A stretch of 58,604 nt of DNA from Candidatus Bathyarchaeota archaeon (GTDB taxonomy: Archaea; Thermoproteota; Bathyarchaeia; Bathyarchaeales; Bathycorpusculaceae): contig PIXZ01000001.1 in NCBI GenBank assembly GCA_003601605.1, positions 1 through 58,604 of the forward strand. Reading direction: 5' to 3'. Below the pieces are notes generated by a model. It was not told where the DNA came from. It saw nothing but the letters and a program-made list of their open reading frames with translations, and searched no databases. Shown one piece after another: positions 3,374 through 20,930 of this stretch (positions within the stretch are counted from its first letter, which is position 1; every line of letters starts with the position of its first letter). The position numbers were made by a program, and so were the translations under genes.

Positions 3374-3497
3374 TTTTTCACCTCACTTCTAGTTTACGGT
3401 TCAGCCTTAAGAGGCTACATCCCAGCGGATTTTATCCGCCATTGGCTTTGATTCATAGCAACATGCAACAAAATAAACTTTTCCAGAGCCATTTACC

Positions 3498-5615: not shown

Positions 5616-6122
5616 TTACTGAATTCTCTTCAAAAATTCTTTGTTCACAGGCAAAACTATTTCCGTCGTTTCTTTTTGTGTGGCGAAAACCATGCAAGTT
5701 AATGTTTTTTCTATTCCTTTAACTGTTCTCAGCTTGTCTATCACAAATTTTCCAATGGCATTAACATCTTTTTCTTTAACTTTAACTAGAATATCCCAGT
5801 CTCCGGAAATTATATGAACTTCCTGGACTTCTGGAAACTTGGCAATTTGTTCTGCAATAACTCTTTGAGAAAGAAAAGTTTCTCCATCCCTATAAGAAAA
5901 AGACGCTAAAACAAAAGCTGTTGCTCCAGCATCCAATTTTTTCGAATCAAGAACAGCCCTATAGTCTTTTATTATTTTTTGCTTTTCCATACGTTTTATC
6001 TTTGCGAAAACTGTTGTTATTGGAGAACCGATTGTTTTAGCGATTTCCCTAGCAGTCATTCTACAGTTTTTCTGTAACAAGTATAATATTGCAAGGTCTT
6101 TTTCATCTAACTTCGCTGACAT
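5616..6122 (-). CDS. Lrp/AsnC family transcriptional regulator
   Basis: LDEKDLAILYLLQKNCRMTAREIAKTIGSPITTVFAKIKRMEK (HTH) followed by a RAM/ACT-like C-terminal half. Confidence 0.85.
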   Translation of the reverse strand: MSAKLDEKDLAILYLLQKNCRMTAREIAKTIGSPITTVFAKIKRMEKQKIIKDYRAVLDSKKLDAGATAFVLASFSYRDGETFLSQRVIAEQIAKFPEVQEVHIISGDWDILVKVKEKDVNAIGKFVIDKLRTVKGIEKTLTCMVFATQKETTEIVLPVNKEFLKRIQ

Positions 6123-6260
6123 ATGTAAATTTTATACAATTGATGCTTAACCCGCTCTGATCAGCTGTATTTTTACTTATAATATTGACTGGAAATTCAT
6201 AATTGTTAATTATATTTTTGGCAAACCATGGAATCAAAATGCGATAAAAGGTGTAACTAA

Positions 6261-6530: not shown

Positions 6531-6755
6531 CTATTTTTGTTGTTCTAGCCTTTTACTGATAAGAGTGAAAACTAGCCATAAAATCGCTCCATAAAAAACT
6601 CCGTTAAAAACAGCACTCAAATATTCAGCATAATCCACTGCAGCTTCTCCAATTAACGTACAGAAAAAGTTTCCAGGAAACATGGGAGAAGGGATAAGCA
6701 GAGAGGCGACTGTGAACATGGAGAAGAAAACAACGAGTATTAGGACACCTCTCAT
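6531..6755 (-). CDS. Small two-TM membrane protein (hypothetical)
   Basis: 74 aa with two hydrophobic helices. A palindrome plus an A-rich box lie directly upstream, so the transcript may be leaderless. Confidence 0.5.
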   Translation of the reverse strand: MRGVLILVVFFSMFTVASLLIPSPMFPGNFFCTLIGEAAVDYAEYLSAVFNGVFYGAILWLVFTLISKRLEQQK

Positions 6756-6787: not shown

Positions 6788-6800
6788 TTCGGATTCAGAA
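6788..6800. promoter_or_regulatory. Palindromic motif copy a: TTCGGATTCAGAA
   Basis: Matches TTCNGAWTCNGAA. It is intergenic, 33-45 nt upstream of the ATG at 6755 (minus strand). Confidence 0.45.
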
Positions 6801-6871
6801 TATATAGAGTATCGCAATATTTAATAAATGTTATTGTCTACTTGACGACCACAAATACAAACAAGCATTTT

Positions 6872-7963
6872 TCAGAGAAGAAGATACAAAGAGGGGGGTG
6901 TGCATAAGATAAAGATCCCTATTAAAACAATACTTACAAGTTTTCTACTTTTAGATAAGCTGGATACATCGTCCAAGGGACCTGGATGCTTGTACATGCT
7001 CATAAACAGAACTAAAATTGCCATCACATAAACTCGTAGAACAATTAAATAAAAAACAGATAACATTGCTAGCACAAATCTGTATTTTTCTCCTCCCAAG
7101 GCTCTTGCTATGTGCCCACCATCGAGCATACCTGCTGGCAACAAATTAAGCATCGTCACCACTATTCCAACCCATCCTGCAAAGGCTATGGGATGCAAGA
7201 GCAGCATTCCGCCTGGTGGTGGTTTTGGAATCATGTTCAAGGCTTCAAGTGCATGCTCTATGATAATCCAGAGCAGAGGAGCACCAATTACTCCCGCTGG
7301 AACTTGTGGAGAAGGCACCGTCATTGTTAAACCTACTGTACTAATTATGAATGCAACTATAAATCCCGAAATCGGGCCATCTGCTCCAATATCAAATAGA
7401 GCGTCCCTATTTGGAGGTAGCGACTTTTGCATTATTACTGCACCAAAAGTTCCTAAAGGAGGAGGACCTGGAATAAAATAAGGAAGAGTCGCGTCAACTT
7501 CGTTTTTGTTCGCTGTTAGCTTGTGTCCCATTTCATGTGTGCCTAAAACTGCTAGCATAGCTATTGTAAAGGAAAACCCGCCAACATAAGGGTTGATAAC
7601 TTCCGGAGACACCAAGTACCCTGCTAAGAAAGTGGTAAATATTGTTGCTAAAAGTAGTAACAAGTTAACTGCAGTGTTACTAGGTTTTATCGGAGGCTTC
7701 GGAACAACTTTTAATATCACTTTTCCATTTTCTTTACGAAGGAAGGCAATAAGGTTCATGTTTTTAAGATTTTTAAGCAGTCGAAGAAATGGTTGTTTTG
7801 TTTCCTGTGGTTGTTTTAGATAGTATGTGGGAATATTATGTTCCAGTAATGTTTCTTCCAATTGAAATTCTGCACTAACTAGCTTAGTTATTTTTTCGAA
7901 ATCCTCTTGTGTGAACAGTGCTTTTGTTGTTTCGTTGGGTATTTCGCTCATTTGCCTCTTCAC
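6872..7963 (-). CDS. Site-2 protease family (M50) intramembrane metalloprotease
   Basis: HEMGH in a TM helix, LNLLPAGMLDGGH second motif, polytopic. Confidence 0.85.
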   Translation of the reverse strand: MKRQMSEIPNETTKALFTQEDFEKITKLVSAEFQLEETLLEHNIPTYYLKQPQETKQPFLRLLKNLKNMNLIAFLRKENGKVILKVVPKPPIKPSNTAVNLLLLLATIFTTFLAGYLVSPEVINPYVGGFSFTIAMLAVLGTHEMGHKLTANKNEVDATLPYFIPGPPPLGTFGAVIMQKSLPPNRDALFDIGADGPISGFIVAFIISTVGLTMTVPSPQVPAGVIGAPLLWIIIEHALEALNMIPKPPPGGMLLLHPIAFAGWVGIVVTMLNLLPAGMLDGGHIARALGGEKYRFVLAMLSVFYLIVLRVYVMAILVLFMSMYKHPGPLDDVSSLSKSRKLVSIVLIGIFILCTPPSLYLLL

Positions 7964-8027
7964 TTTTGTTTATGGTTGTTATAGAGAAGTGCAAGTAGAA
8001 AAGTTTATTGGATTTTGTTTCCTCATG

Positions 8028-8064
8028 TTCGGAATCTGAACTACTAAAAACTTTTTAATAATCG
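8028..8064 (+). promoter_or_regulatory. Palindromic motif copy b (TTCGGAATCTGAA) plus conserved TATA module
   Basis: The 37 nt ttcggaatctgaactactaaaaactttttaataatcg match 31/37 positions with the reverse complement of 13772-13808. The module lies upstream of the GT4 pair. Confidence 0.5.
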
Positions 8065-8174
8065 TTGAAAGACAAAACTCTCCGCAGAACCAAAAAAGAC
8101 ACAAAAATAGCAAAACAATGGCGACAACAAAATTCAGTAACATGATTAAAAACTAAAATAAAGGATGGAAATCC

Positions 8175-9377
8175 TTGAAAATCGCAATTCTTTATAGTCA
8201 CCTAAAAGAAATGGGCGGGGCGGAGAGAGTAATTCTTAAACAAGTTGAACTATTCCAGAAAAAAGGATTTAATGCTGAATGTTATTTTGCGTATATTGAT
8301 AAAAATCTCCATAAGGAAACATCGAACCCCCACTGTTACACAAAAACCTTCTTCAACAAACTTGTTCCCAACAATTCGGCGATAAGAATAATCACCTCAA
8401 TACCTTTAGCACCCCTAGCCCTACCCACCTTTAACAAAGAAAACCTTTTAATATGCCACGGATACGGTCCAGCTCCTATAATAGGCTATCTAAACAAAAA
8501 GTTGAGGAAAACAAAATATGTTACCTACATTCATTCTCCTCCAAGATTTCTCTACCTAAACCCTGAAGAAAGAAGCTTATGGAAATTTAACGACATACGT
8601 AAAATAATTTTTAGATTAAGCAAAATCGCTGGCCCCATTCTGAAAGAACTGGATTATTTGGGTGTAACAAACTCTGACATAGTTTTGGCAAACAGTTATT
8701 TTACAGCAAAAAGAATTCAAACAATCTATCAAATACACGCAAAAGTTTGTTATCCACCAGTAGATATTAAAAGTTTTAGAATTCTTGACAGAAAAATTGT
8801 TGAAAAAGTTAGAAACAGGTTTAGTTGTCCCATTATCCTTTCAACTGGAAGAATTGTTGCTGTAAAACGTTGGGAGTGGCTCCTAGAAATAATGAGTTTA
8901 ACAGTGAAAGAAATTCCTTCAGCCACCTTAGCCATAACAGGTGAAATTTCAGAAGAAAACTTCCAATACGTGGAAAAACTTAGGAAAATGTCAAAAAAGC
9001 TGAAGATAGAGAGAAATGTGAAATTTTTAGGATTTAAATCCCAGAAAGAACTCATAGAACTTTACAATGCCGCTGACGTTTACGTCTACCCCGTGCCAAA
9101 AGAAGATTTTGGGTTAGGTCCTGTAGAAGCAATGGCTTGCGGGACCCCTTCTGTTGTTTGGGACGATGGAGGAGGCCCCTGCGAAACAGTATTTGAAGGT
9201 AAGACTGGTTTTAGAGCAAAACCTTATGACCGGAAAGATTTTGCTGAAAAAATTTTAAAAATTCTAGAAATGGATAAATCCGAATTTTCCTGTAAAACAC
9301 GAAATTTTGTAAAGGAAAACTTCTCTTGCACAAAACATTGGAAAACCTTAAGAGAAATAATAGAAAGGGTAGGGTGA
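8175..9377 (+). CDS. Glycosyltransferase, GT4 (GT-B fold)
   Basis: TTG start. MKIAILYSHLKEMGGAERV N-terminus and a C-terminal EDFGLGPVEAMACGTP (E-x7-E type) motif. Confidence 0.85.
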   Translation: MKIAILYSHLKEMGGAERVILKQVELFQKKGFNAECYFAYIDKNLHKETSNPHCYTKTFFNKLVPNNSAIRIITSIPLAPLALPTFNKENLLICHGYGPAPIIGYLNKKLRKTKYVTYIHSPPRFLYLNPEERSLWKFNDIRKIIFRLSKIAGPILKELDYLGVTNSDIVLANSYFTAKRIQTIYQIHAKVCYPPVDIKSFRILDRKIVEKVRNRFSCPIILSTGRIVAVKRWEWLLEIMSLTVKEIPSATLAITGEISEENFQYVEKLRKMSKKLKIERNVKFLGFKSQKELIELYNAADVYVYPVPKEDFGLGPVEAMACGTPSVVWDDGGGPCETVFEGKTGFRAKPYDRKDFAEKILKILEMDKSEFSCKTRNFVKENFSCTKHWKTLREIIERVG

Positions 9378-9378
9378 A

Positions 9379-10641
9379 GTGGTTAAAATTGAAAAAAGAA
9401 AAAATTTCATTCCGTCAATTTTCGCCATTTTTTTCCATCCAAACCCCAAAATAACCGCTTTAGGGGGAGCAGAAAAAAGGTTTATTGAAACTTTAAAGAT
9501 TTTCTGCAATAAGAAAAACTTGAAAATCACGGTTCTAGAGTCGAATCCAAGCTTTTCAGAAGAAAGAGGGATAAAATGCAAAAAATATCAGGTGTCTTGT
9601 AGTGTTAAAGGAAAGGGATGGTTAAGTGCATACTTTAACTGGATTGTTTGGGCGATAAAGGCTTCGATTAAAGGTGTTTCTGTTGTGCGCCTTGCAAAGC
9701 CAGAAATTATTCTCGCTCCGAACAATACTTTGCCCAACCTCTTTCCAGCCATTTTCTTAAGCTTTATTTTCCATACCCCCCTAGTAGTAACTGTTCATCA
9801 TCTCGACAACCCAAGCATAAAAACTGAAAACAAAGCCAAAGACTGCTCGCTTTACGGTTGTTATCGTTGTTTAGGCTACAGCAGACTCGTGTCATTAACT
9901 AAAGCCTTCGCTTTTTATCTAACCATCTTTCTTTTAAAAAAGGTTAAAGGGGTAATTGCTGTTTCAAAATTTACGGCAAAAAATCTCGAAAACAACGGTG
10001 TCCTGCCTAGCAAAATTCTTGTTAGCGGTAATGCAGTGAATTTAGATTTAATTGACAAAGTTACACCTTGCAGTCAAGGAAAAGTTTATGATGGAATTTT
10101 TGTTGGCAGAATTGCGAAGGAAAAAGGAGTTTTTGATCTAGTTAAAATTTGGAAAGAAGTTGTAATGGTTAAGAGAGATGCTAAATTATTAATTATCGGA
10201 AGTGGACTGGAACTGCCGTTTCTAAAAGAAAAAATAAGTTCTCTTGGCTTGGAAGGTAAAGTTCTTCTACATGGAAAGTGTAGCGATTTTGAACTATACA
10301 GCTTACTAAAGTCCAGTAAAATCTTCATTTTTCCAAGTGTTTTTGAAGGGTGGGGACTTGCAGTTGCTGAGGCTTTAGCCTGCAGCCTACCAGTAGTAGC
10401 CTATGACATACCGGCTTTAAGGGAAAATTTTGGAAAATGTCAAAGCGTCTTTTTTATTCGCCCCAAAAATTTGAGAGAGTTAAGCTTGATGGTTCTTGAA
10501 CTTTTAAATCTAAGCAGAAAGGAGCTGGTTAGACTCGGTGAAAAATCAAGGAGTTTTTCTAGAAAGTTTAGTTGGGAAACTGTGGCGGAGAAGGACTTGG
10601 AAGCATTACGGTTATTTCTAAAAACTTCTGGCAAAAACTAA
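9379..10641 (+). CDS. Glycosyltransferase, GT4 (GT-B fold)
   Basis: GGAEKRF near the N-terminus and a FEGWGLAVAEALACSLPVV motif. It starts 2 nt after the previous GT4. Confidence 0.8.
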   Translation: MVKIEKRKNFIPSIFAIFFHPNPKITALGGAEKRFIETLKIFCNKKNLKITVLESNPSFSEERGIKCKKYQVSCSVKGKGWLSAYFNWIVWAIKASIKGVSVVRLAKPEIILAPNNTLPNLFPAIFLSFIFHTPLVVTVHHLDNPSIKTENKAKDCSLYGCYRCLGYSRLVSLTKAFAFYLTIFLLKKVKGVIAVSKFTAKNLENNGVLPSKILVSGNAVNLDLIDKVTPCSQGKVYDGIFVGRIAKEKGVFDLVKIWKEVVMVKRDAKLLIIGSGLELPFLKEKISSLGLEGKVLLHGKCSDFELYSLLKSSKIFIFPSVFEGWGLAVAEALACSLPVVAYDIPALRENFGKCQSVFFIRPKNLRELSLMVLELLNLSRKELVRLGEKSRSFSRKFSWETVAEKDLEALRLFLKTSGKN

Positions 10642-10694
10642 TTTTAGGCTAAAAAGGTTGGGATAAAAAAGGGAAAGATAGGTTTAAGGTTCGG

Positions 10695-13600
10695 CTAAGG
10701 ATCGTGCGGTGTCTTTTCACTTATTGTTCCTAGACGTTCAAGGATTGTAACTTCTGGATTATGAGCGTCATAGTCGTAGTATGGTTTTTGATCCGTATAA
10801 TCTATCCTCACTATAAGCGTTGTTACTCCCGGATTTTCTGTCTGCAGGTAGTAAATGCCGTATTCGTGGAACCATTTACAGGTATAGTATGTGTCGTCGC
10901 CGCTCCACCCGTAAATCATGAAGCCTACAGTGCCGTTAATGTCTTTGTATGTGGTTATTACACCTATTCCCGTGTTAGTTGCTCCGGGTGTAAATTGGCC
11001 ATTACTATAATAGTACTGTCCAAGATAGTTGCTGGCTTTTGTCGTGTTCCAACAGGTAGGTGCAAATATTACATCCACAAGATTACCGCCTATAATGCCG
11101 TAGATTTGAATTGCTTGCGAGAATTCGTTAAAGTATTCGCTGAAGAGGTTAGCTGAAGGACCAGCTACTGTGATTATGTTAGAAGTGGAGACAGGATAGC
11201 GCGTACACCAGTCGTCTACATAGGCTAGTCTGCCTAGACTGTCATAAATATCTGTCCATGCTGGGCCTCCTGCACGCCATGTTGCATTGCCGAGGTCAGC
11301 GAGTAAGTAGGGAACATTTGTACCCCACATATCCATCATGTCAAGGCCGCCGTTTCCAATTTCCACCTGTTTGTTTTTGAAGGCTGCTGAAACCATTGCC
11401 GCGCCTACCGAGTCTATAGCACGTGAGTGGTTGCCAACCACCACCCATTCGTAGCGTCCAGGAATGTGCTCTGTGTAAAGCTGGTGTTGTCTTAAGCCAT
11501 ATCCGTTGATGTTGAGGTCGATTGTTACATTCCAAGTGGTTACATTGTATAGAGCGGTGATGTTGTAGTCTACATCCAAATGGATCCAGTCTATGTGAAC
11601 GTCTGTATGTGTTGGCGGTGTTACTGTTACTGTTAATTGAAAGTCGTCTAAACTGATTTTGATTTTGTCGTTATCATCTGTATGGTTCCAATGATTATTA
11701 GAGCTGCCTCGTTCACCTAGCCAATAAACTTTGATTGTAGCTGGATTTTCTTTGAAAACTTTAATGTCTTCTGCCCACCAGTCAGCTGTGCCGGTTAGGC
11801 TGAATTTGTCTCCATTCGTTAACTTTGTGAGGTTTGAAACAACAAATTCTAGATAGTTAACATCAAACCTGTAGTTAACTCCAAGATAATCCGTAAAGCT
11901 ACTGTCCGCCCAAGCGGGGTCGTCGTATGTGAACGTGTGGGTGTCGGCAAAGGTTACATTCTCGTTGTGAGCATATGAAATGTTACCATAGTGAGTATAG
12001 CTTGTTTCGGTGGAATAAAGTATTTTTATTCTCGTTCCAGCTGCCGGCACTTTTGAATACGGAATTGTCACTGTGCCCACTCCATTCGAGTCAACATCAA
12101 ATATGTAATCGTAGGGTGTCCATACCGATCTTAACGGTATTCTTCTAACGCCTCCCCATTCAACTCTTTCACTGAAATTGCAATATTTTTCCCAGACATT
12201 TGAATACTTCACCGGCGTGTTTGTTAGGGTAATTTCCAAGTCGATATGATTAGTGTGTGCATTTTCGTATTCGGTAGGGGTCACAGTGTGAAAGTCTACC
12301 CATCTCCTTGTATCTTTATGGACGGCAGTGCGCAGGTCCCATGGATTAAACACTTCGTCAAGTTGATATTTCACTTCCCGATCAATCACATTGCTGCCAC
12401 CCGACCGGTTAGCATCATCTCCGTTCCAACAGTCAGTTAATCCGTAGACGGTGACTCCTCTAAATTGCCTGTCAAAATGGCGGCCTCCAGAATCCACAGG
12501 AGTTTTAGTTAGAACAAAGTCCCACTCTCCAATTGTGTATGGGGACATGAACGGTTCGAGAGATGTGTCTGCAATATCGTCATTCTGATCTAGAGACTTC
12601 CACCATTCGTCTTGATAACCGGCATCAACATGCCAGTTTGAGACTGACGGCCAGAATGCAGCCCAACCAACATACTGTCTGTCTTTGGCAACTATCTGAG
12701 CTAGATCGTAGGTTCCAGAAGCATTAGGTTGAGGTCCGTAGCTGGAAATGCCAAGCCAAGTTGCTGGATAAAGCGTTGGATTTAAGTGGTAATCTACATC
12801 ATAGACTGTGGATAAACCCATTGCCAGCTCTGTTCTATTTTCTGCTCTGTAGAAGTGGACATAACTATCATAGGTGTTGGCTGGTCCAATATCCCATTCG
12901 CCTCTGTTACTAAACTGGATTATGGCGCCGTTAACAGTCGCATTTGTTTCACCGTCTACTGGCACTGTCATTTGACCGAATACGAATTTGGTTGTGGCTT
13001 CTTTGATGTCTTTGATAACTATAACTTGTTTTTTCACCTTATTGAAAATGTATGTGAATACTATGTCGACTAATGGTTCGTCTTCACTCCATCCTGGATC
13101 CCAGTCATAAATGTGCGTTACTGTGCGAGCGACAAACATTCTTGGACCGTTGTATAATACAGTGATATCCTCTGTTACAGCGGTGCCATTGGTTTTTCTT
13201 CCACCATTGACAGGTCCTTCACCCGTGCTTATCAGCTTACCAACGTCTCGTGGATCTTCTTGCCATTCGTACAACGCGCCTGAGTATCCATAGCTACTGT
13301 CAACTCTTATCCAGTCTTTTCCGTATTCCACTAAATCTGCATGTTGCGCCATTGCCCATACATTTCTAATGCCGGAAGTTGCGTGATATGTTATATTTAT
13401 TAGCCACCCGCTCATCCATTTCTTTTTAGTTATCTCTGGAGGTACACTGTCACCTGCTGGTGGTGCAAAGACATCTCGGTCACGATATTCTAGACCTACA
13501 TTTGTACTGCTATCGATTATTTCGCCGAACTTTGAGAACCCGAATTTCAAGCTTTTGTCGGTTTTAAATGGGTAAAGCGTATAATAATCGCTGTCGAGTA

Positions 13601-13739
13601 CTCCTTCGACGGTCATGTACCAATCGGCAGGGTCGGTTGCGGCTACTGATTTTGTTGAGAATAATGGGATGATGATTGTTATGGTGATCATTGCAATGGA
13701 TAGTGTTGAGAGTATTTTCTTTCTTTTTTCCATTTTCAT
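10695..13739 (-). CDS. Large secreted glycoprotein candidate (possible S-layer or cell-surface protein)
   Basis: 1014 aa. It has an N-terminal signal or anchor (KKILSTLSIAMITITIIIPLF...AAT) and no C-terminal TM. I count 18 N-X-S/T sequons. It is very rich in Trp and Tyr and is flanked by glycosyltransferases. I recognised no family. Confidence 0.8.
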   Translation of the reverse strand: MKMEKRKKILSTLSIAMITITIIIPLFSTKSVAATDPADWYMTVEGVLDSDYYTLYPFKTDKSLKFGFSKFGEIIDSSTNVGLEYRDRDVFAPPAGDSVPPEITKKKWMSGWLINITYHATSGIRNVWAMAQHADLVEYGKDWIRVDSSYGYSGALYEWQEDPRDVGKLISTGEGPVNGGRKTNGTAVTEDITVLYNGPRMFVARTVTHIYDWDPGWSEDEPLVDIVFTYIFNKVKKQVIVIKDIKEATTKFVFGQMTVPVDGETNATVNGAIIQFSNRGEWDIGPANTYDSYVHFYRAENRTELAMGLSTVYDVDYHLNPTLYPATWLGISSYGPQPNASGTYDLAQIVAKDRQYVGWAAFWPSVSNWHVDAGYQDEWWKSLDQNDDIADTSLEPFMSPYTIGEWDFVLTKTPVDSGGRHFDRQFRGVTVYGLTDCWNGDDANRSGGSNVIDREVKYQLDEVFNPWDLRTAVHKDTRRWVDFHTVTPTEYENAHTNHIDLEITLTNTPVKYSNVWEKYCNFSERVEWGGVRRIPLRSVWTPYDYIFDVDSNGVGTVTIPYSKVPAAGTRIKILYSTETSYTHYGNISYAHNENVTFADTHTFTYDDPAWADSSFTDYLGVNYRFDVNYLEFVVSNLTKLTNGDKFSLTGTADWWAEDIKVFKENPATIKVYWLGERGSSNNHWNHTDDNDKIKISLDDFQLTVTVTPPTHTDVHIDWIHLDVDYNITALYNVTTWNVTIDLNINGYGLRQHQLYTEHIPGRYEWVVVGNHSRAIDSVGAAMVSAAFKNKQVEIGNGGLDMMDMWGTNVPYLLADLGNATWRAGGPAWTDIYDSLGRLAYVDDWCTRYPVSTSNIITVAGPSANLFSEYFNEFSQAIQIYGIIGGNLVDVIFAPTCWNTTKASNYLGQYYYSNGQFTPGATNTGIGVITTYKDINGTVGFMIYGWSGDDTYYTCKWFHEYGIYYLQTENPGVTTLIVRIDYTDQKPYYDYDAHNPEVTILERLGTISEKTPHDP

Positions 13740-13771
13740 TCCTCTTTTGGTTCATGTATGAGAGCGTGGCA

Positions 13772-13808
13772 CGTTTATTAAAAATTTTTTAGTGGTTCTG
13801 AATCAGAA
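13772..13808 (-). promoter_or_regulatory. Palindromic motif copy c (perfect TTCTGAATCAGAA, 13796-13808) plus conserved TATA module
   Basis: The minus strand reads ttctgattcagaaccactaaaaaatttttaataaacg. The TATA-like box sits about 35-45 nt upstream of the ATG at 13739, and GAGG precedes that ATG. Confidence 0.55.
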
Positions 13809-13872
13809 TTAGAATAAAAACCATAAAATAATTCAAACAAAAACCAAAAATAACAAAAATATTAAAAACTAT

Positions 13873-14595
13873 TCAAATTCTACGCTTAAAAAGCAAAACA
13901 AGATACCTAACAACCGTAGAAAACAAACGCATTTTACTAGCACCACCCTTCCGACCATAATCAAGAACTATAGGAACTTCAACCACAACGCCGCCAGAAT
14001 TTACAGCCTTAAGCAACAACTCAAGCGAGGACTCAAACCCTTTAGCTTCAATAAACTTGTCTCCAAACTCCTTGTAAAGACGTTTAAGCAATCCGGCCTT
14101 GAAACATCGAAAACCACTAGTAGCATCTTTTAAAGGCAGTCGAAAAACTATTCTAACTAAAAAATTGACAGTCTTGCTTAGAAAAACTCTGTGAAAGGAA
14201 ACATTCAACTGTGTCCCACCCTTAACGTAACGAGACCCTACAACTACATCAGCCTTTTCCGCCACAGTCAACATGTCTAAAACATGCTTTGGATTATGAG
14301 TGTTGTCAGAGTCCATGGTAACAACAAAATCGTCGTCAAAAGTTTCCTCTGCAGCGGCAGTTAAACCAGTTTTTAAAGCAGTTCCCAAACCAAGATTAAA
14401 AGGATGCTCAAGAATTTCTATAGGATATTCGCTGGAAAGGTCTTTTAAAATCTCGCCTGTTCTATCATAGCTCCCGTCATTAACCACGATAATTTTGTAT
14501 GGCAGTAAAGGTTTTAGAACATGATCTATTGAGTGGACTAGTTGTTTAATGTTTTTTTCCTCATTAAAGCAAGGTAAAACTATGAAACATCTCAT
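13873..14595 (-). CDS. GT2 glycosyltransferase, dolichyl-phosphate sugar synthase-like (Dpm1/AglD-like)
   Basis: VLPCFNEEKNI...VVNDGSYDRT...DSDNTH (DxD) and about 240 aa without a TM tail. Confidence 0.8.
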   Translation of the reverse strand: MRCFIVLPCFNEEKNIKQLVHSIDHVLKPLLPYKIIVVNDGSYDRTGEILKDLSSEYPIEILEHPFNLGLGTALKTGLTAAAEETFDDDFVVTMDSDNTHNPKHVLDMLTVAEKADVVVGSRYVKGGTQLNVSFHRVFLSKTVNFLVRIVFRLPLKDATSGFRCFKAGLLKRLYKEFGDKFIEAKGFESSLELLLKAVNSGGVVVEVPIVLDYGRKGGASKMRLFSTVVRYLVLLFKRRI

Positions 14596-14861
14596 TTGAA
14601 GATTTCACTTTGAAAGCGTTCTAATGATGCTTTGGATTGTAGAAAAAAGAGTTTTAAGGAGAGTTCAGAGTTAGATTTCGAGTTTGCTAGTATTTCTTAA
14701 CTTTTCTGAAAAGCAGAATCTTTCCAATAGAAAGAAAACCTAAAGGCGAATCAGCCAAACCATAATCTAACGGCTTCGCCAACAACATCAAAATCTTCGA
14801 TAAAAACGAAAGAAAATTAGGCGAAAAAGAAGGCTTACTTGCCAAAAAGTAGTAAGCTTTC

Positions 14862-15059
14862 TTACTGAAAGTAGCAGCATATTTTCTTAAACCTAGAAAC
14901 GTTATTGGAATTTTCTCTAATAGTTACATATTCCTGAAAGGTTTGAGCAATAAAGTCGTATGTTTTATTCTCTGCATAATGGGCAAGCCAGTTTCTCGCG
15001 ACTTTTCTCCATTTGGAGAGCCTAACGTCTAATTCTTCTCTTTCAGTTTCAAAAGCCAC
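14862..15059 (-). CDS. Small hypothetical protein, possibly the 5' part of a frameshifted gene
   Basis: The ORF track gives 14862-15116, whose first 14 codons overlap the upstream gene. A GTG at 15059 lies just past that gene's stop. A second open frame (14687 to about 14917) continues downstream in another frame. Confidence 0.3.
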   Translation of the reverse strand: MAFETEREELDVRLSKWRKVARNWLAHYAENKTYDFIAQTFQEYVTIRENSNNVSRFKKICCYFQ

Positions 15060-15073
15060 AACATTCCAATAAT

Positions 15074-18000
15074 CTACTTCCTTCCGGCTCTCAGCAGCCA
15101 AGCTTTCACCTTCCAAAAAGCTAGACGACTTTTAATACGTTTAGAAATATTTCTTGGGGTAAGAACAGCTACGACAATGAAAATCAAACTTGCCAGAGAG
15201 ATTTTTAACCCTACATCTGCATACCATTGACCTGCAAAATATACGTCTATATTAAACTCTCCAGTTTTATTCACGTAGAAACTATTAACAAAAGAAAAAG
15301 CAATAGTTGAACTTATTTCTTGACCATTCTCTAATCTAGCTTTCCAGAGGGGATGGTAAGTTTCAGAAAAAACCAGAAAAAATGGCTTTTCAGTCTTTAC
15401 ATGTAATTTGTAGCATGTCGGATTTAATTTTTCATAGTGGATTATTGGCGAATCAACATTAGAGTTAAAAATATTCTGAACAGAAACTATACTTTCATCT
15501 TCTTTAAGCGAATACAAAATTATTTGGTCAAACAGTATTTTACCATAAGCCGCAATGGTAAACTTTTGTTCACCTTTTTCCAAAAAAATTGGCCCTGCTT
15601 CATACCATTGAAAATTTTCCTCCACACCAGAACAATTAAATAGCAAGGAATTATTGGCTACTCTCAGATTTAATGTTCCATAACCAGGACCTCTAGCGAG
15701 ACGTAACGCTAGCATATACTTGCCAGTTTTAGGTATGAAATGGCTGGTGGTGATTGAAGATAGTTTACAAGGTTCAAGTTCAAAAATGCTAACTAAGTGA
15801 TGCTCAGTTCCATAAGAGTTTACTGTAAGCAAAAGTTTATCGGTTTCAACAGGCTTTTTAAACATATAAACAGGTGAAAGCAGGGAGTTGCCTGTAATAT
15901 TTATTTGTGTAACCCAGTGTGTTCCATTCCAGGTTTGAATTGTAAAATCTTTTGCAACGGCTGTTTCAAAGAAAATTTTTACACCTGCTAGTTCCTGTGG
16001 TGTTGGCCACTCTATTTCTAACCATTGAGGAGTCTCTTGGGCAGGGTTCGAAGCCCATCTAGTTTCGAGTGACCCGTCTAAAACATTTTGTGGAATAAAA
16101 TTGTCTTGAGTAGAGCTTGCAGAAACTGTAGCGTTTTCTTTTATCACTTCTAAGGCGTTTTCAGCTTTTAATAAGTCATTTTCGTATTCTTGGAGATGAA
16201 TTGCCCATCCTTCGGTAAGGTTGTATGCGAAAAGGTTAGCAGCACCTATGATGTCGACTATTCTACCTTGAAAAGATTCAATGGATTGAAGGATTTCATT
16301 GTAAGTGGTTTGGAAGACGCTTGGTTCAACTACTGCCACAGCATCAACATCGTTAAAACCGGGACCATTATTTTTTAAAGTTATCACATGCCTCCCTTCT
16401 TCCAAGTGTAAGTTTTGTATTTTAACCCATGAAAGGGCACACCAGTAGTCTGCTTCAGGTTTAATTTCGCCTGCAAGATTGCCGTCTACAGAAATCGTCA
16501 GATTGCCTCTGTTAGAAAGGAAACCAATACGTACCCAAATGTCGTACGTCGCATCTTTTGTTATCTCAAAAGGAATGCTCTCTGTTACATTTCCGTAGGT
16601 GGTAAGTGTTTTACCACCGTAAACTAATGCGCCAATTTCATTCCAAGAGCTTGTCTGCACCCAATATTCTGAAGCGTTATAACTATAAACTCCGAAATCT
16701 GCAGCGTTTAGAATTATTGCTTTTCCTCTCAATTGCAACATTACAAGGTCTAAAATGTTGGAATTAACTAAAACTAACGCGGTAGCATTTATTTGCAGTT
16801 TTTTAAAAAATTCATCATCCAACTGATTAATGAAAAAAAGACTTGTCTCATTTAACACGAACGATTTAATTCGGCATAAATATCCAAAAGTATTGTAGCC
16901 GCCTAGAACATTTGCGTATTTACTTGTGCCAAAGAAAGGTGGGACATGATAGGGATTTTCAATTATTAATGATTCATTTTCGTTATAGACTATGTTACAC
17001 GTGGCTCCAGTTTGGTTTAGAAAGAAACTTTTTATATCGCTGTCCAAGTATGCAGGTAAAACTATGTATTTATAATTAAATAAACCCACTATTTTTAGAA
17101 AATCGCTGGTTTTCCTTTGCCCAGCTAAACGGAAGCGTAGGTAATCCGTGAAGCTGTGGGCGTTAGAATCCCAGCCACCGTCCTGCATTACTGGTTTATC
17201 ATGGATAAACGAACTTTCAAAGCCAATATCATGTCCCCAACCTATTTCTGTTAGCATTGCGGAATAGCCAAAATCAAAACTGGATGAAGAAACGCCCATC
17301 CATCTTGCTGGGCCTCTGTTAATGCTTACAACTTTAAAGTCGCCTTCTTGAAGACTTAGCCATTCGTAGGGTTGCACATAATTTTCTAGTGGAGAATAAA
17401 CTTGCAGTCCTTCCCGGAGAAAGTACCATGTTGAAAAGAAACCATTAAGAAAAATTAAGATTATCAAACATACACTTAGGTAATGAAGAGCTTTATGAAA
17501 GTTAAAAAAGAAGTTTCCAATAATTTTGAATGGGGTTGCAAGCTTTTTTGCCTTAAGATACCATGCAATCTTTACGCTAAAGTTAGAAAACACTTCTTTT
17601 ATTTCAAGATATCGTTTCTTTCTAATGTATAGTGTTAAAATGTTTACAAGCGACCCTATAAGAAAAGCGTGTGATAAACAGCTCATCATTATCCATCTGC
17701 TTGCAGCCCTAAAAACGGCAAAGTATGGAATGTTCAACCAACCCCAAACAAACAACTCGCCAAATGGAGGGTATGGTCCTTTGGAAACAAACATTGAAAC
17801 TACAGAGGCGGTTACGAAGAAAACGGTGTATTTATCTTTTCTGAGAAAAACGGTGCAGTATGCCAAAAAGAATATTACTATTGATATAGTCTTTGCTGGA
17901 ACATCTGACAAGTCTATCCCTGTAACCACATCTACAATGTTTACGTATCCCCAGACTTCTACTGCTCCTAGAGCAAAGGCATCCGTCAGATTTTTGTAGG

Positions 18001-18859
18001 TGCCACCCCAAATTTCCTCTAAATAATATTTGTAGGTAGGCGAATAGTATCTTGGCTGAACATTGAAAATCATTGGTAAAAACAGAAAAGCAGCCAAGAA
18101 GAAGCTGATGAGAGCCAAGGGTAATGCCGTTTTTAGCAGATTTTCAACCTGTTTTAGTTTGCTTGAAGTGTTTTTGTTCATAAGCACGTATGTTAGTGCA
18201 AAAATAATAAAGGAAGTGCCGTAAATTACAACGCATTCTGGATGAAAAGCAGAAACAAAAATAGCTAAAACCAAGCCAGTAACCAAGATTTCTTTGGTTT
18301 TTTTTGTTTCAAAAACTTTGAAAATCAAAAGAAAGAGTATTGGTGCAATTGCATAGCTGAAAAGTATATCGCCATGAGCCTCGGTGTATTGGGAAAAAAG
18401 CCACGGATTTAAAACGTAAATAAGAGATGCAGCAAGCGAACTTGTGGGGTTTTTTGTGTACCAGTAAACTAAAGCATAGCTCGTAAAGCCTGAAAAAATG
18501 AAAGTAAAAAATAGAAAATATTTAGCTGTAGCTATGGCGTTTCCTGTAAACCAGTGAAGAATCATAAGGAAAAAGTCATACCCATGGATTACTTCCACAA
18601 AACCGAAGGAGTGGGGTCGCCATACGTAAAGCCATCTTAAATCTTTGCCGAAAATGTAAGCCCTAGAAACAAGTCCAAGGGCATCGCCTCCCGCTGGCCA
18701 CTTATTTGTAAAAAGGAAGTTGCGAAATATTATAATACCTATTAAAGTGATTAGACAGAAATCTAGCAGTATTCTAATTTTTAGCCAGCTTATGTTTCCA
18801 AAGTTTGCTTTAAACTTTTGACAAAAAGTTTTTAGAAATTTTTTCAAGGTTTCATCCAC
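15074..18859 (-). CDS. Polytopic GT-C-like membrane protein with extracytoplasmic F5/8 type C (discoidin) domain
   Basis: 1261 aa. The first 480 aa or so are multi-TM. The discoidin-like segment NVLDGSLETRWASNPAQETPQWLEIEWP...FTIQTWNGTHWV is encoded at about 15880-16110. There is a single C-terminal TM. No WWDYG motif, so it is not a canonical AglB. Confidence 0.8.
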   Translation of the reverse strand: MDETLKKFLKTFCQKFKANFGNISWLKIRILLDFCLITLIGIIIFRNFLFTNKWPAGGDALGLVSRAYIFGKDLRWLYVWRPHSFGFVEVIHGYDFFLMILHWFTGNAIATAKYFLFFTFIFSGFTSYALVYWYTKNPTSSLAASLIYVLNPWLFSQYTEAHGDILFSYAIAPILFLLIFKVFETKKTKEILVTGLVLAIFVSAFHPECVVIYGTSFIIFALTYVLMNKNTSSKLKQVENLLKTALPLALISFFLAAFLFLPMIFNVQPRYYSPTYKYYLEEIWGGTYKNLTDAFALGAVEVWGYVNIVDVVTGIDLSDVPAKTISIVIFFLAYCTVFLRKDKYTVFFVTASVVSMFVSKGPYPPFGELFVWGWLNIPYFAVFRAASRWIMMSCLSHAFLIGSLVNILTLYIRKKRYLEIKEVFSNFSVKIAWYLKAKKLATPFKIIGNFFFNFHKALHYLSVCLIILIFLNGFFSTWYFLREGLQVYSPLENYVQPYEWLSLQEGDFKVVSINRGPARWMGVSSSSFDFGYSAMLTEIGWGHDIGFESSFIHDKPVMQDGGWDSNAHSFTDYLRFRLAGQRKTSDFLKIVGLFNYKYIVLPAYLDSDIKSFFLNQTGATCNIVYNENESLIIENPYHVPPFFGTSKYANVLGGYNTFGYLCRIKSFVLNETSLFFINQLDDEFFKKLQINATALVLVNSNILDLVMLQLRGKAIILNAADFGVYSYNASEYWVQTSSWNEIGALVYGGKTLTTYGNVTESIPFEITKDATYDIWVRIGFLSNRGNLTISVDGNLAGEIKPEADYWCALSWVKIQNLHLEEGRHVITLKNNGPGFNDVDAVAVVEPSVFQTTYNEILQSIESFQGRIVDIIGAANLFAYNLTEGWAIHLQEYENDLLKAENALEVIKENATVSASSTQDNFIPQNVLDGSLETRWASNPAQETPQWLEIEWPTPQELAGVKIFFETAVAKDFTIQTWNGTHWVTQINITGNSLLSPVYMFKKPVETDKLLLTVNSYGTEHHLVSIFELEPCKLSSITTSHFIPKTGKYMLALRLARGPGYGTLNLRVANNSLLFNCSGVEENFQWYEAGPIFLEKGEQKFTIAAYGKILFDQIILYSLKEDESIVSVQNIFNSNVDSPIIHYEKLNPTCYKLHVKTEKPFFLVFSETYHPLWKARLENGQEISSTIAFSFVNSFYVNKTGEFNIDVYFAGQWYADVGLKISLASLIFIVVAVLTPRNISKRIKSRLAFWKVKAWLLRAGRK

Positions 18860-19689
18860 CCAGTCAAATTTCTCAAAGAGAAAAGAGAGGTTAAGAAACC
18901 CGCTATGTATGCTGCGTACTCGATTAATTTTAAGCTAAGTAACTCGACAAAAAGCAGTGGTTGCTTTTTGAAAAAAGACAAATTTCTTACAAAATATGCT
19001 GGTGAAGAAGTTTTTAATGTTAGAATAGGTTCCTTTTTAAAGTAGAATGGCAGTGTGCTACCATAATAATAAAGTTTTGCTATCAGCTTTTTAATTGTGA
19101 GGTCTTCTTCGTGATGTTTTATAGAAGCTTTACATTTTCCAATGTCAAATCCGTGTTTACGGAGACGTTGCGTTAACTCAAAATCTTCACCGATAACCAG
19201 ATTTTTATCGTATCCACCGACATCATCAAAAACCTTTTTCTTGAAAAACCGTGGAGCTTCACCATAAACCTCACGCATATGCATTGTTTTTTCCAACTTT
19301 TTACATCTGGCAATGAAACTTTCCCCAACGGATTTTTCTGGAATAATTACTGCATCGAACTTATTGAAGTAGGACAGTTTCACACATTCTGCTACAACAT
19401 TAGGAGTTAACTCCATATCTGAATCAACAAATAAAACAAATTTTCCTTTAGCTTTTTTAGCTCCAAAATTTCTAGCAAGACTTCTTTCACTAGCTGAAAA
19501 AAATAGTTTAGCCCCGAATTTTTTCGCAATTCTTTTAGTATCGTCTTTGCTGAAGGCGTCCACTATTATAATTTCTATGTTTTTATAGCTTTGATTTAGA
19601 ATGGATTTAAGACACAACTCTAAACTTTTACCAGAATTGAAAGTGGGTATTATTATAGAAACTAAAGGAAAAGGGCTATCACATTTCAT
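18844..19689 (-). CDS. GT2 glycosyltransferase
   Basis: PLVSIIIPTFNSGKSL...IIVDAFSKDDT...FVDSDME. It overlaps the downstream GT-C-like gene by 16 nt. Confidence 0.85.
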   Translation of the reverse strand: MKCDSPFPLVSIIIPTFNSGKSLELCLKSILNQSYKNIEIIIVDAFSKDDTKRIAKKFGAKLFFSASERSLARNFGAKKAKGKFVLFVDSDMELTPNVVAECVKLSYFNKFDAVIIPEKSVGESFIARCKKLEKTMHMREVYGEAPRFFKKKVFDDVGGYDKNLVIGEDFELTQRLRKHGFDIGKCKASIKHHEEDLTIKKLIAKLYYYGSTLPFYFKKEPILTLKTSSPAYFVRNLSFFKKQPLLFVELLSLKLIEYAAYIAGFLTSLFSLRNLTGWMKP

Positions 19690-19694
19690 CGCAT

Positions 19695-20531
19695 CTACCT
19701 CAGAAAAATTGTGTGACTTAAGACATATGCGAAAACGCCAATTGCATAAGAAACATATTCAAGTAGTTTAATGACTAAAATGCCGAATAGATAGGCGGGC
19801 TGTTTCAGCAAGAATTTTATATTTCGAACAAACCTTGTTGGAGAATATCCTCTTAATGTTAGTGTAGGATTTTTAAAAAAGAAGGGAACAAAACTCTTGC
19901 CATAGTAATAAGCTTTTAAAATAACTTTTGTTAAGGCAAGTTTTCCTTCAATATGCTTTATTGGCAGAGTTGCCACTCCTATGTGGTAACCCCTTTTCTC
20001 GTATCGCCTAGCTAAGTCAAAATCTTCTCCTAAAACAAGTCTTTCATCAAATCCTTGCACATTAAGGAAGGTTTTTTTGTTGAAAAAGCGTGGCATCAAA
20101 AAAAAGTTTGAATCATTATTGTAGAAGTCTCTTTCATGCTTTCTACATCTAGCCCAGAACCCGTAAGCTATAGTTGTTTCCGGAATCATTACTGCATCAA
20201 AATTTTTTTCGTTGCATAAAACAATGCATTCTTCGACAGTTTTTGGATGTAATTCCATGTCTGAATCCATGAATAAAAGGAATTTTCCGCTGGATTTCTT
20301 GGCGCCGAAATTCTTAGCTAAGCTTCTTTCGCTGTTTAGGCGCAGTATTTTAACATTAAATTGTTTGGCTATTTGAATTGTTTTGTCAGAACTGTAACGG
20401 TCAACGATTATGGTTTCGATTTTCTTGTAGGTTTGATCAGCAATGGACTGTAAGCATCGTTGAATTGTCTGTTGCGAATTATATACGGGAATTATTATTG
20501 AAACCAGTGGTTCAGCGTTACGATTTTTCAC
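19695..20531 (-). CDS. GT2 glycosyltransferase (tandem paralog of 18844-19689)
   Basis: PLVSIIIPVYNSQQTI...IIVDRYSSDKT...FMDSDME. It is collinear with its neighbour over the full length. GTG start preceded by GAGGAGG. Confidence 0.85.
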   Translation of the reverse strand: MKNRNAEPLVSIIIPVYNSQQTIQRCLQSIADQTYKKIETIIVDRYSSDKTIQIAKQFNVKILRLNSERSLAKNFGAKKSSGKFLLFMDSDMELHPKTVEECIVLCNEKNFDAVMIPETTIAYGFWARCRKHERDFYNNDSNFFLMPRFFNKKTFLNVQGFDERLVLGEDFDLARRYEKRGYHIGVATLPIKHIEGKLALTKVILKAYYYGKSFVPFFFKNPTLTLRGYSPTRFVRNIKFLLKQPAYLFGILVIKLLEYVSYAIGVFAYVLSHTIFLR

Positions 20532-20597
20532 TTAAGCCTCCTCGTTAACGTGTGCAGAGGCTTTGTTTATGAATTTTCCTTCAAAAATTAAACAATA

Positions 20598-20610
20598 TTC
20601 AGAATCGGAT
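20598..20610. promoter_or_regulatory. Palindromic motif copy d: TTCAGAATCGGAT (12/13 match)
   Basis: Intergenic, 67-79 nt upstream of the GT2 operon start at 20531. An AT-rich box follows on the minus strand. Confidence 0.35.
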
Positions 20611-20622
20611 TAGAAATAGAGA

Positions 20623-20877
20623 TTATTTTCTAAAAAATCTGGATTTCCTAGGGGCTTCACCCTTTTCACTAATGGCATACACTTCATGCAATTCAAACTT
20701 AGCTCCGCATCCTTTGCATTGAACATAGGCGTTATCACGTTTAAAACCAAGCCAAAATCCTGAAACAGATTTACATTTAGGGCAGATTTTAAAACGAGCT
20801 GCGACCTCTTCAATCTCTCGAATACCCAAACCTTCCCTTTCTCCACAAATATTTACTTCAACCAGAAATTTAATCAT
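20623..20877 (-). CDS. Small zinc-ribbon protein
   Basis: CPKC...CKGC. The internal Met (MIKFLVEV) is the preferred start, because the 20922 start would leave only 8 nt to the divergent gene. Confidence 0.5.
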   Translation of the reverse strand: MIKFLVEVNICGEREGLGIREIEEVAARFKICPKCKSVSGFWLGFKRDNAYVQCKGCGAKFELHEVYAISEKGEAPRKSRFFRK

Positions 20878-20930
20878 TTTGGTGTACCAAACAGAAATGA
20901 AAAGCAAACGGTTATTAGCCATAAAACATC

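Follow-up and report, generated by a model that had tools for sequence, protein, structure and literature searches.

A conserved 13-bp palindrome upstream of cell-surface and glycosylation genes in Bathyarchaeales as a predicted regulator site

The stretch of DNA analysed here (the window, 58,604 nt of a Candidatus Bathyarchaeota contig) carries a 13-bp palindrome, hereafter the dyad, in the promoter regions of a gene island for cell-surface functions. Our data indicate that it is a genuine, previously undescribed cis-regulatory element with a regulon of known kind. As the dyad stands at a fixed distance before promoters and is conserved in dozens of related genomes, a putative regulator that would switch cell-surface genes together very likely docks on it. 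We assign a probability of roughly 0.72 to the joint reading that the dyad is the site of a dimeric transcription factor, that FFRP is the likeliest class of this factor and that the island is co-activated. The element is best described in general form as TTCNG-WWW-CNGAA. The sites and adjoining promoter elements are as follows.

6788-6800, no strand assigned: site 1, lineage-specific dyad TTCGGATTCAGAA, flanked by the M50 stop codon and the small membrane ORF
8021-8042, plus strand: site 2, extended element in the divergent GT4/M50-protease intergenic region, dyad TTCGGAATCTGAA at 8028-8040, exact match
8044-8061, plus strand: probable BRE/TATA block CTAAAAACTTTTTAATAA for the GT4 pair
13794-13815, minus strand: site 3, extended element of the 1014-aa gene, ATTCTAA-TTCTGATTCAGAA-CC, dyad at 13796-13808, third TTC 6 bp upstream
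13775-13792, minus strand: probable BRE/TATA block for the 1014-aa gene, CTAAAAAATTTTTAATAA, with TAATAA starting 15 nt past the dyad
14664-14676, minus strand: degenerate dyad ATCTAACTCTGAA in the 240-aa GT2 promoter, 3 mismatches, third-best matrix match of the window
20596-20617, minus strand: site 4, promoter of the GT2-GT2-1261-aa operon, dyad ATCCGATTCTGAA at 20598-20610, 12/13 match

The exact pattern TTCNGAWTCNGAA occurs three times in the window (6788-6800, 8028-8040 and 13796-13808) with 0.04 copies expected, and 0 of 100 dinucleotide shuffles reached three copies. A preliminary description had listed these three copies and the 12/13 match at 20598-20610, and had put the chance expectation far below one in about 59 kb. 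All four sites are present at these positions and are intergenic as proposed; the estimate holds as well. With one mismatch allowed, five matches are found in the window versus 1.55 expected, so the window by itself does not make site 4 significant. A position matrix was built with only the relatives as input. Its best matches in the window are the intergenic regions of the island, and no best match is found near pilus or housekeeping genes, which agrees with the earlier statement that promoters of those genes are free of the dyad. The same statement had extended to coding sequence; one of the one-mismatch matches (25714-25726) falls within the pilus ATPase ORF. No known RNA family overlaps the sites.

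A Pfam check covered the genes which the four sites face, namely the 61-aa membrane ORF, the GT4 pair, the 1014-aa protein and the GT2-GT2-1261-aa operon. The genes considered are listed below.

5616-6122, minus strand: Lrp/AsnC (FFRP) regulator gene (Pfam, NCBIfam), the regulator candidate of the preliminary description
6570-6755: 61-aa membrane ORF, facing site 1
6872-7963, minus strand: M50 (site-2-protease family) membrane peptidase (Pfam), divergent from the site-2 region
8175-10641, plus strand: GT4 pair operon (Pfam Glycos_transf_1, Glyco_transf_4; NCBIfam)
10695-13739, minus strand: 1014-aa secreted protein gene, with signal peptide and 18 N-X-S/T sequons
13873-14595, minus strand: 240-aa GT2 gene, resembling polyprenyl-phosphate sugar synthases
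15074-20531, minus strand: GT2-GT2-1261-aa operon (GT2 19695-20531, GT2 18844-19689, 1261-aa 15074-18859)

The 1014-aa protein is probably a major surface glycoprotein. Its 18 sequons are twice the expectation, eight of them are conserved, and more than 500 homologs exist in Bathyarchaeia. The Pfam search returned no family for it. Since modelling gave only a poor structure (pLDDT 58) and the fold search no significant match, its putative identity as an S-layer protein rests on the signal peptide, the sequons and conservation. The second GT4 protein has a single match in the genome collection, distant and bacterial, and an exact-sequence search found no record of the window proteins. The GT-C label given to the 1261-aa polytopic membrane protein in the preliminary description was not confirmed: its recognised features are confined to a carbohydrate-binding domain of F5/8-type-C and a weak MmpA-like match, the latter in the membrane part. 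The 240-aa GT2 shows sub-threshold matches to the PpgS, AglJ and dolichyl-phosphate hexose transferase families. The M50 protease may share the site-2 element with the GT4 pair, and a conserved block CCAATAAACTTTTCTAC is located on its side of the dyad; the sequence of its N-terminal domain, read by eye, contains nothing resembling a DNA-binding motif. With dyads at the four sites and a degenerate copy in the window representing a fifth promoter class, each transcription unit of the island thus carries the element. This fifth-class copy (14664-14676) is absent from the earlier list of sites.

For comparison we used 76 related metagenomic loci (~900 kb; 957 kb including the window), which were scanned over ~10 kb either side of the island. 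Sequence outside ORFs of ≥90 aa was taken as non-coding and makes up ~9%. It harbours 46 of the 49 exact copies found in the 957 kb. Allowing one mismatch gave 130 intergenic versus 29 coding matches, the intergenic ones nearly all in four promoter classes, and the unified pattern TTCNG-WWW-CNGAA has 60 intergenic and 9 coding occurrences in the loci.

Phylogenetic footprinting, an approach already suggested in the preliminary description, showed that orthologous promoters retain the dyad at sites 2, 3 and 4. All 24 orthologous regions of site 2 (GT4/M50) are within one mismatch (18 exact, 6 with one mismatch), as are 27/33 at site 3 (1014-aa promoter), 15/17 at site 4 and 12/23 in the class of the 240-aa GT2 promoter (GT2_240), whereby the orthologous loci are phylogenetically related and the counts hence do not represent independent events. 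The dyad persists where the 1014-aa protein has diverged to 38-42% identity. At site 4 the orthologous promoters show the variant TTCNGAAACNGAA in the same register with variable N positions, and relatives carry TTCTAAATCGGAAACTGAA with 0-2 mismatches at the 240-aa GT2 promoter. The dyad thereby defines a regulon in the sense of comparative genomics: one motif is found at several related units, is kept in the orthologous promoters of diverged genomes and is rare elsewhere. The idea of an operator of an envelope and glycosylation regulon gains from the conservation of sites 2-4, from the fifth class and from the near-confinement to non-coding DNA.

This does not apply to site 1. Its copy was found only in the identical strain (L032) and is missing in 24 other orthologous regions, other relatives showing 2-4 mismatches, so that it drops out as a conserved member. 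Moreover site 1 is located downstream of the conserved TATA box of the small membrane ORF (TTTATTAAATA, about 6821-6831).

The GT/M50 promoters were aligned by their TATA box and not by the dyad. Here the specified positions reach 1.82 bits, compared with 0.58 for the N/W positions and 0.76 for the upstream flank; the first N position takes all four bases, the second three of four. The site-4 and GT2_240 classes repeat this footprint. Site 3 (13796-13808) has the top matrix score (32.6) and is kept in 37 distinct orthologous promoters, which are conserved throughout, N positions and leader included, and therefore cannot alone separate the dyad from general constraint.

The dyad is usually preceded 6 bp upstream by another TTC and has G...C flanks; as scan pattern the element reads TTCNGWWWCNGAA. 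At sites 2 and 3 the dyad is followed by 12 nt and TTTTTAATAA. All 18 distinct GT/M50 orthologs have 15 nt between the dyad end and TAATAA; in the 1014-aa promoters this distance is 15 nt in 31/37 and 14 nt in 6/37. Both sites have ~39 nt in common including BRE/TATA, a block present nowhere else in the window, and exact copies of CTAAAAAATTTTTAATAA occur in the window solely at the 1014-aa gene and at site 2. Site 4 has a different geometry with the nearest TATA-like box 5 nt or 27 nt away. An AT-rich box adjoins every site, as previously described, but a common geometry is restricted to sites 2 and 3. The dyad of these promoters is placed as in an upstream activating site, at a fixed distance upstream of BRE/TATA, with the TATA boxes and transcription starts being predicted from sequence.

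Sites 1-3 show the self-complementary 13-bp form abcdeWWWedcba, that is TTCNG[AAT/ATT]CNGAA, while the site-4 and GT2_240 classes of the relatives read TTCNG[AAA]CNGAA. In 17/18 GT/M50 promoters, and likewise in the site-4 and GT2_240 classes, the central 3 bp are all A:T. Ten of the 37 1014-aa promoters have a central G, unusual for FFRP sites; binding to FFRP sites has been reported lost only with all three central bp G:C (PMC2715240). That a 13-bp dyad is typical of archaeal Lrp/FFRP regulators, as the preliminary description had put it, conforms to the published form abcdeWWWedcba (PMC2715240). Hence the regulator most likely belongs to the FFRP class. The closest likeness is to the operators of FL10 (Pyrococcus) and LysM (Sulfolobus), (G)TTCGA[AAT/ATT]TCGAA(C) (PMC2715240). 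They have the same inverted repeat with TTC at bases a, b, c, an AAT/ATT centre and, likewise in the GT/M50 class, G...C flanks. In contrast, bases d, e are G, A in FL10/LysM and N, G in the dyad; an AAA centre occurs in two promoter classes and AGT in a quarter of the 1014-aa promoters, both unlike FL10/LysM. The targets also differ, being cell-surface genes here and amino-acid genes for FL10/LysM.

Based on this analysis, we infer that a dimeric sequence-specific transcription factor binds the palindrome. Each island unit bears one copy, i.e. the 1014-aa gene, the GT4 pair (site shared with M50), the 240-aa GT2 and the GT2-GT2-1261-aa operon, in a lineage of Bathyarchaeia, Bathyarchaeales, that is probably Bathycorpusculaceae-like. 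At the two strongest promoters the site adjoins the presumed BRE, its end lying 15 nt before TAATAA. Binding upstream of BRE/TATA goes with activation in archaea (PMC4158304, PMC6737238). As the characterised archaeal activators (Ptr2, Tar, TrmBL1/Tgr) bind there, the most likely mechanism is that the surface glycoprotein and its glycosylating enzymes are activated in concert. Ptr2 of Methanocaldococcus jannaschii and Tar (TK0271) of Thermococcus kodakarensis (TGGACA-N8-TGTCCA) recognise a palindrome upstream of BRE/TATA, as here, and like the dyad their sites are common to several operons of one pathway (PMC4158304, PMC6737238). The sequence of the dyad however differs from both, its spacing differs from Tar, and activation is suggested here by position only. 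The strain-specific 6788 copy, downstream of the TATA box, may instead lead to repression. The glycolytic motif of TrmBL1/Tgr in Thermococcales is upstream of BRE/TATA in activated and downstream in repressed promoters (PMC4158304), and such a dual use would account for the different position of this copy. However, that motif and regulator family are unrelated to the dyad, dual use would here concern one non-conserved site, and the window contains no TrmB-family gene.

For the protein acting at the dyad, the preliminary description had suggested, as pure inference, the neighbouring Lrp/AsnC protein (5616-6122). It could bind as dimer or octamer and convey an amino-acid signal to envelope synthesis. 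This protein is the sole canonical transcription factor of the 58.6-kb window and the dyad has the FFRP 13-bp form. Its contact residues (A24, P34, I35, T36, T37 and F39 by ungapped alignment to FL11) are the same in nine orthologs (68-77% identity), and the published contacts assign T at bases a and b to Pro34, Thr36 and Thr37 (PMC2715240), in agreement with the dyad. While TT at these bases fits the published contact pattern, C at base c normally needs Arg39, the residue reading it in every characterised archaeal FFRP that has C there; residue 39 of the present protein is Phe (and residue 24 Ala). The code is also broken by E. coli Lrp, which combines Leu39 with C at base c (PMC2715240), and the contact test is thus not decisive. 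However, at least 12 loci retaining the dyad lack the gene at this position (e.g. L009, L012, L013, L016, L018, L021, L040 and L055). Moreover the matrix finds no dyad in its own promoter, autoregulation being usual though not universal and this finding referring to this Lrp only. A different conserved palindrome (TGTAATAATTACA or TGTATAAAAATTACA, 6124-6138) lies beside its start codon instead, where an autoregulatory FFRP site would be expected. The link is weak, and we consider this particular protein an unlikely regulator. Neither the window nor the loci of the relatives contain other FFRP paralogs, or a cognate FFRP with Arg39, and no regulator gene was found consistently linked to the island across loci. 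A 99-aa zinc-ribbon ORF (20623-20922), which invariably stands before a dyad promoter, was for that reason weighed as a candidate; it was rejected, having a homolog in L051, which lacks the dyad, and belonging to a family that looks like elongation factor Elf1.

An explanation without any dedicated regulator takes dyad and BRE/TATA together as a duplicated long core promoter cassette, i.e. a strong constitutive promoter. The ~39 nt common to sites 2 and 3, the rigid dyad-TAATAA spacing and conservation of the 1014-aa promoter over its full length would suit this. Strength could come e.g. from DNA shape or from contacts of a basal factor paralog. Yet the site-4 and GT2_240 promoters have the dyad footprint with neither the BRE/TATA block nor its spacing, and fixed palindromic positions next to free N/W positions are the contact signature of a symmetric dimer, not of a duplicated block. 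With the strain-specific 6788 copy in addition lying downstream of a TATA box, we regard a core cassette as quite improbable. Known methyltransferase and restriction families recognise TCNGA and GANTC. The palindrome is made up wholly of them (two TCNGA and one GANTC, overlapping) and might accordingly be a methyltransferase target cluster, as an epigenetic switch or under restriction-modification pressure. Against this, neither is depleted (O/E 1.0 and 0.87 in the window, 0.96 and 0.94 in the window plus nine long loci), unlike GATC and GGCC, which are strongly depleted. Conservation also goes past the pentamers and includes the adjoining T and A as well as the upstream TTC, and in two classes a right pentamer ACNGA destroys one TCNGA and the GANTC while the rest is kept. 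The chance that methylation explains the dyad is therefore very slight. A site for a dimeric transcription factor remains the preferred reading.

Bathyarchaeia are abundant in sediments and barely cultured, and no paper on transcriptional regulation of their envelope genes was found in the literature. The dyad offers a concrete, testable cis-regulatory code, and the co-regulated gene set indicates which protein is likely the major surface glycoprotein and which enzymes build its glycans. Short dyad DNA could be used as bait for the regulator in enrichment cultures or with expressed candidate proteins, and the promoters represent a natural strong cassette that could serve once genetic tools exist for Bathyarchaeia. 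More tentatively, and with considerable doubt, an Lrp-type or new-family regulator may, throughout Bathyarchaeales, act as master switch for the surface glycoprotein together with its entire glycosylation pathway. In that case cell-envelope synthesis would be set directly by nutritional or other ligand signals in a group that ranks among the most abundant uncultured archaea, and dyad promoters would mark the borders of an exchangeable glycosylation cassette. In three loci (L048, L053 and L056) the glycosyltransferase genes of the island are replaced, yet the dyad promoters at both edges are retained.

Exact matches to TTCNGAWTCNGAA, the 13-bp palindrome (dyad), occur three times in the window (6788, 8028 and 13796; sites 1 to 3) as opposed to 0.04 expected, and none of the shuffles gave three. 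The three exact copies reported in the preliminary description are hence real. Allowing up to one mismatch adds 20598 (site 4, intergenic) and 25714 (within the pilus ATPase gene) at 1.55 expected in the window, so that the fourth site is not significant from window evidence alone. All four sites are intergenic as claimed, and no known RNA family overlaps them. Site 1 faces a small membrane ORF; the other genes concerned are the following.

8175-10641, two GT4 genes (site 2, together with M50)
10695-13739, 1014-aa protein (site 3)
GT2-240, a 240-aa GT2 gene resembling polyprenyl-phosphate sugar synthases
15074-20531, GT2-GT2-1261-aa operon (site 4)

Archaeal markers are present in the window (F420 ligase, diphthamide synthase, L15e, RNase P p30). 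The 1014-aa protein has homologs under the name Candidatus Bathyarchaeia, and one neighbour family leads to Bathycorpusculaceae, order Bathyarchaeales. A signal peptide and 18 N-X-S/T sequons (8.7 expected) mark this protein; eight of the sequons persist in 80% or more of 50 orthologs, and the window's cytoplasmic proteins carry ~2 per 1000 residues. The term secreted glycoprotein is thus well founded. Its structure model was poor and gave no match, and an S-layer protein is a candidate identity only. The GT-C label previously given to the 1261-aa protein found no backing in domain searches.

Metagenome contigs were scanned with an alignment of 50 orthologs, resulting in 76 loci that comprise the island of cell-surface and glycosylation genes and ~10 kb to either side of it. 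The loci share a strongly conserved gene order: beta-helix protein, CofE, MBL, zinc-ribbon ORF, GT2, GT2, 1261-aa, methyltransferase, GT2-240, 1014-aa, GT4b, GT4a, followed by divergent M50, small membrane ORF, zinc-ribbon 82-aa, (Lrp), GGR and Dph6. The proposed pattern search for intergenic enrichment was run on 957 kb: 46 of 49 exact matches fall into the ~9% outside ORFs of at least 90 aa, and with one mismatch allowed 130 intergenic matches stand against 29 coding ones, the former nearly all in four promoter classes.

Best match to the dyad per orthologous intergenic region, counted by mismatches (mm); the loci are phylogenetically related and counts across them are non-independent.
Site 2 region, 24 loci: exact 18; 1 mm 6; 2 mm 0; at least 3 mm 0
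Site 3 region, 33 loci: exact 12; 1 mm 15; 2 mm 6; at least 3 mm 0
Site 4 region, 17 loci: exact 1; 1 mm 14; 2 mm 2; at least 3 mm 0
GT2-240 promoter, 23 loci: exact 3; 1 mm 9; 2 mm 10; at least 3 mm 1
Site 1 region, 25 loci: exact 1; 1 mm 0; 2 mm 3; at least 3 mm 21

Phylogenetic footprinting, likewise suggested before, shows that orthologous promoters keep the dyad in four classes. The sole exact site-1 match among relatives belongs to L032, an identical strain, which argues for a recent, strain-level acquisition. The envelope/glycosylation regulon postulated earlier has support in four promoter classes; conserved membership of site 1 has none. The GT2-240 promoter copy of the window (14664-14676) is decayed to ATCTAACTCTGAA. 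A matrix built from relatives only gave 13794, 8021, 14662, 6781 and 20596 as best window hits, of which just 13794 and 8021 individually exceed the shuffle maximum; no hit lies near pilus or housekeeping genes of the window. The dyad observation is confirmed and considerably strengthened. We consider the dyad a new cis-regulatory element with good computational support; its kind is familiar, the archaeal group that carries it is poorly known, and a literature search found no earlier description.

With GT/M50 promoters aligned by TATA box and not by dyad, specified positions carry 1.82 bits, N/W positions 0.58 and the 12 nt upstream 0.76; the first N position has 4/4 bases, the second 3/4. The site-4 and GT2-240 classes show the same footprint with A at position 8 (TTCNGAAACNGAA). 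An extra TTC 6 bp upstream of the dyad is common to all classes. TAATAA, a TATA box as judged by sequence, begins 15 nt from the dyad end in 18/18 GT/M50 promoters; for 1014-aa promoters the spacing is 15 nt in 31/37 and 14 nt in 6/37. Thirty-seven distinct 1014-aa upstreams retain TTCTAA-TTCTGAATCAGAA-CCACTAAAAAATTTTTAATAA and a conserved leader, and both persist at 38-42% protein identity. This leader (13741-13774, minus strand), ACGTGCCACGCTCTCATACATGA...AAAGAGGAATGAAA, is nearly invariant among orthologs of 40-70% protein identity, a degree of conservation beyond what a ribosome-binding site by itself requires. Upstream of the GT4 start codon, ~110 nt (8062-8174) follow the TATA-like box and hold blocks kept in relatives (GTTTAAAGACA, CAAAACAGACAC); they may be an unexplained long leader, or there may be a second TATA-like box at 8065-8072.

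In gene orientation, sites 2 and 3 have ~39 nt in common (dyad, CYACTAAAAA(A/C), TTTTTAATAA, WCGT), and exact copies of their BRE/TATA-like block are found at only these two places in the window. The arrangement at sites 1 and 4 differs. Pure promoter duplication does not explain the dyad, as it leaves the palindromic pattern of constraint unaccounted for and the dyad also occurs in promoters without the common block. Nor does a methylation or restriction target find support: neither TCNGA nor GANTC shows depletion, and the variant classes disrupt these pentamers while the rest is kept. Separately, GATC and GGCC are strongly depleted over the whole window (O/E 0.25 each; GTAC 0.51), which suggests restriction-modification pressure at these sequences; relatives show the depletion to a lesser degree.

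In 5-3-5 notation, the dyad reads TTCNG-[AAT/ATT]-CNGAA, with the variant TTCNG-AAA-CNGAA; the unified pattern occurs 60 times intergenic and 9 times coding in the loci. Archaeal FFRPs favour abcde[AAT/ATT]edcba, and FL10 and LysM prefer (G)TTCGA[AAT/ATT]TCGAA(C) (Yokoyama et al. 2009, PMC2715240). The dyad fits this form, in line with the Lrp/FFRP-type format assigned to it before, and resembles the FL10/LysM sites in outer TTC, centre and flanks. A second conserved palindrome of FFRP-like 5-3-5 form, TTCAATTTTTGAA in relatives (TTTAATTTTTGAA in the window, 20580-20592), separates the site-4 dyad from the probable TATA box of the GT2 operon (TTCATAAACAAA, 20562-20573). Archaeal regulators bound upstream of BRE/TATA are activators, and the same motif downstream leads to repression (PMC4158304, PMC6737238). 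By position, the conserved sites would hence mediate activation; the 6788 copy, downstream of the conserved TATA-like box of the small ORF, might mediate repression.

That the adjacent Lrp/AsnC gene (5616-6122, minus strand) encodes the regulator, as previously put forward, seems rather unlikely. It aligns with FL11 without gaps across the DNA-binding region, its contact residues A24, P34, I35, T36, T37 and F39 are invariant in nine orthologs, and the published table predicts TT at bases a and b from residues 34, 36 and 37, as observed. Base c = C pairs with Arg39 in that table; this Lrp lacks Arg39, and E. coli Lrp is a documented exception to the pairing. At least 12 loci with dyads lack the gene here, and the relatives-only matrix found no dyad in its promoter within the window. 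A different palindrome, TGTAAATTTTATACA (6124-6138), lies directly upstream of its start codon. Eight orthologous promoters conserve this palindrome as TGTAATAATTACA or TGTATAAAAATTACA, and it is probably the autoregulatory operator of the Lrp gene. No further FFRP genes are encoded in the window and related loci. The zinc-ribbon ORF (20623-20922, minus strand) was rejected as a good regulator candidate: it always precedes a dyad promoter, but a homolog exists in L051, a dyad-less locus, and its family resembles elongation factor Elf1, a name given to one member by one source. Its listed 99-aa start is just 8 nt from the divergent MBL start (20931, plus strand); orthologs indicate a real protein of ~70-74 aa with a C4 ribbon (CPKC...CKGC) and basic tail.

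Between the zinc-ribbon ORF and M50, no transcription unit lacks a dyad copy. Compared with window 8175-20531, glycosyltransferase content varies in L048, L053, L056 and L058 with flanks and dyad promoters constant; in the first three, glycosyltransferase genes are swapped for others between retained dyad promoters at both edges. Hence the island looks like an exchangeable glycosylation cassette. In some relatives the 1014-aa gene immediately follows the zinc-ribbon ORF. In a second clade (L010, L033, L041, L042, L045, L047, L049, L050, L051, L062, L065, L067, L075), the 1014-aa homologs of all 13 loci have a very different, equally conserved promoter, GGAAAACCTTTTAAA...ACTATAGAAAG, confined to this gene and devoid of the dyad. 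Between the clades, the 1014-aa promoter has been replaced.

Relatives have an intact SAM-methyltransferase-like gene (285 aa in L013, 8195-9052). In the window (14687-15116, minus strand) it is reduced to two pieces, 14862-15116 and 14687-14845, lacks ~540 nt and looks like a pseudogene with internal deletion. Upstream of the L15e gene (3393-3439, minus strand), the Rfam ribosomal protein leader 'eL15-Euryarchaeota' scores 44 bits, above the gathering score; the match is in a genome of Bathyarchaeia, not of a euryarchaeon.
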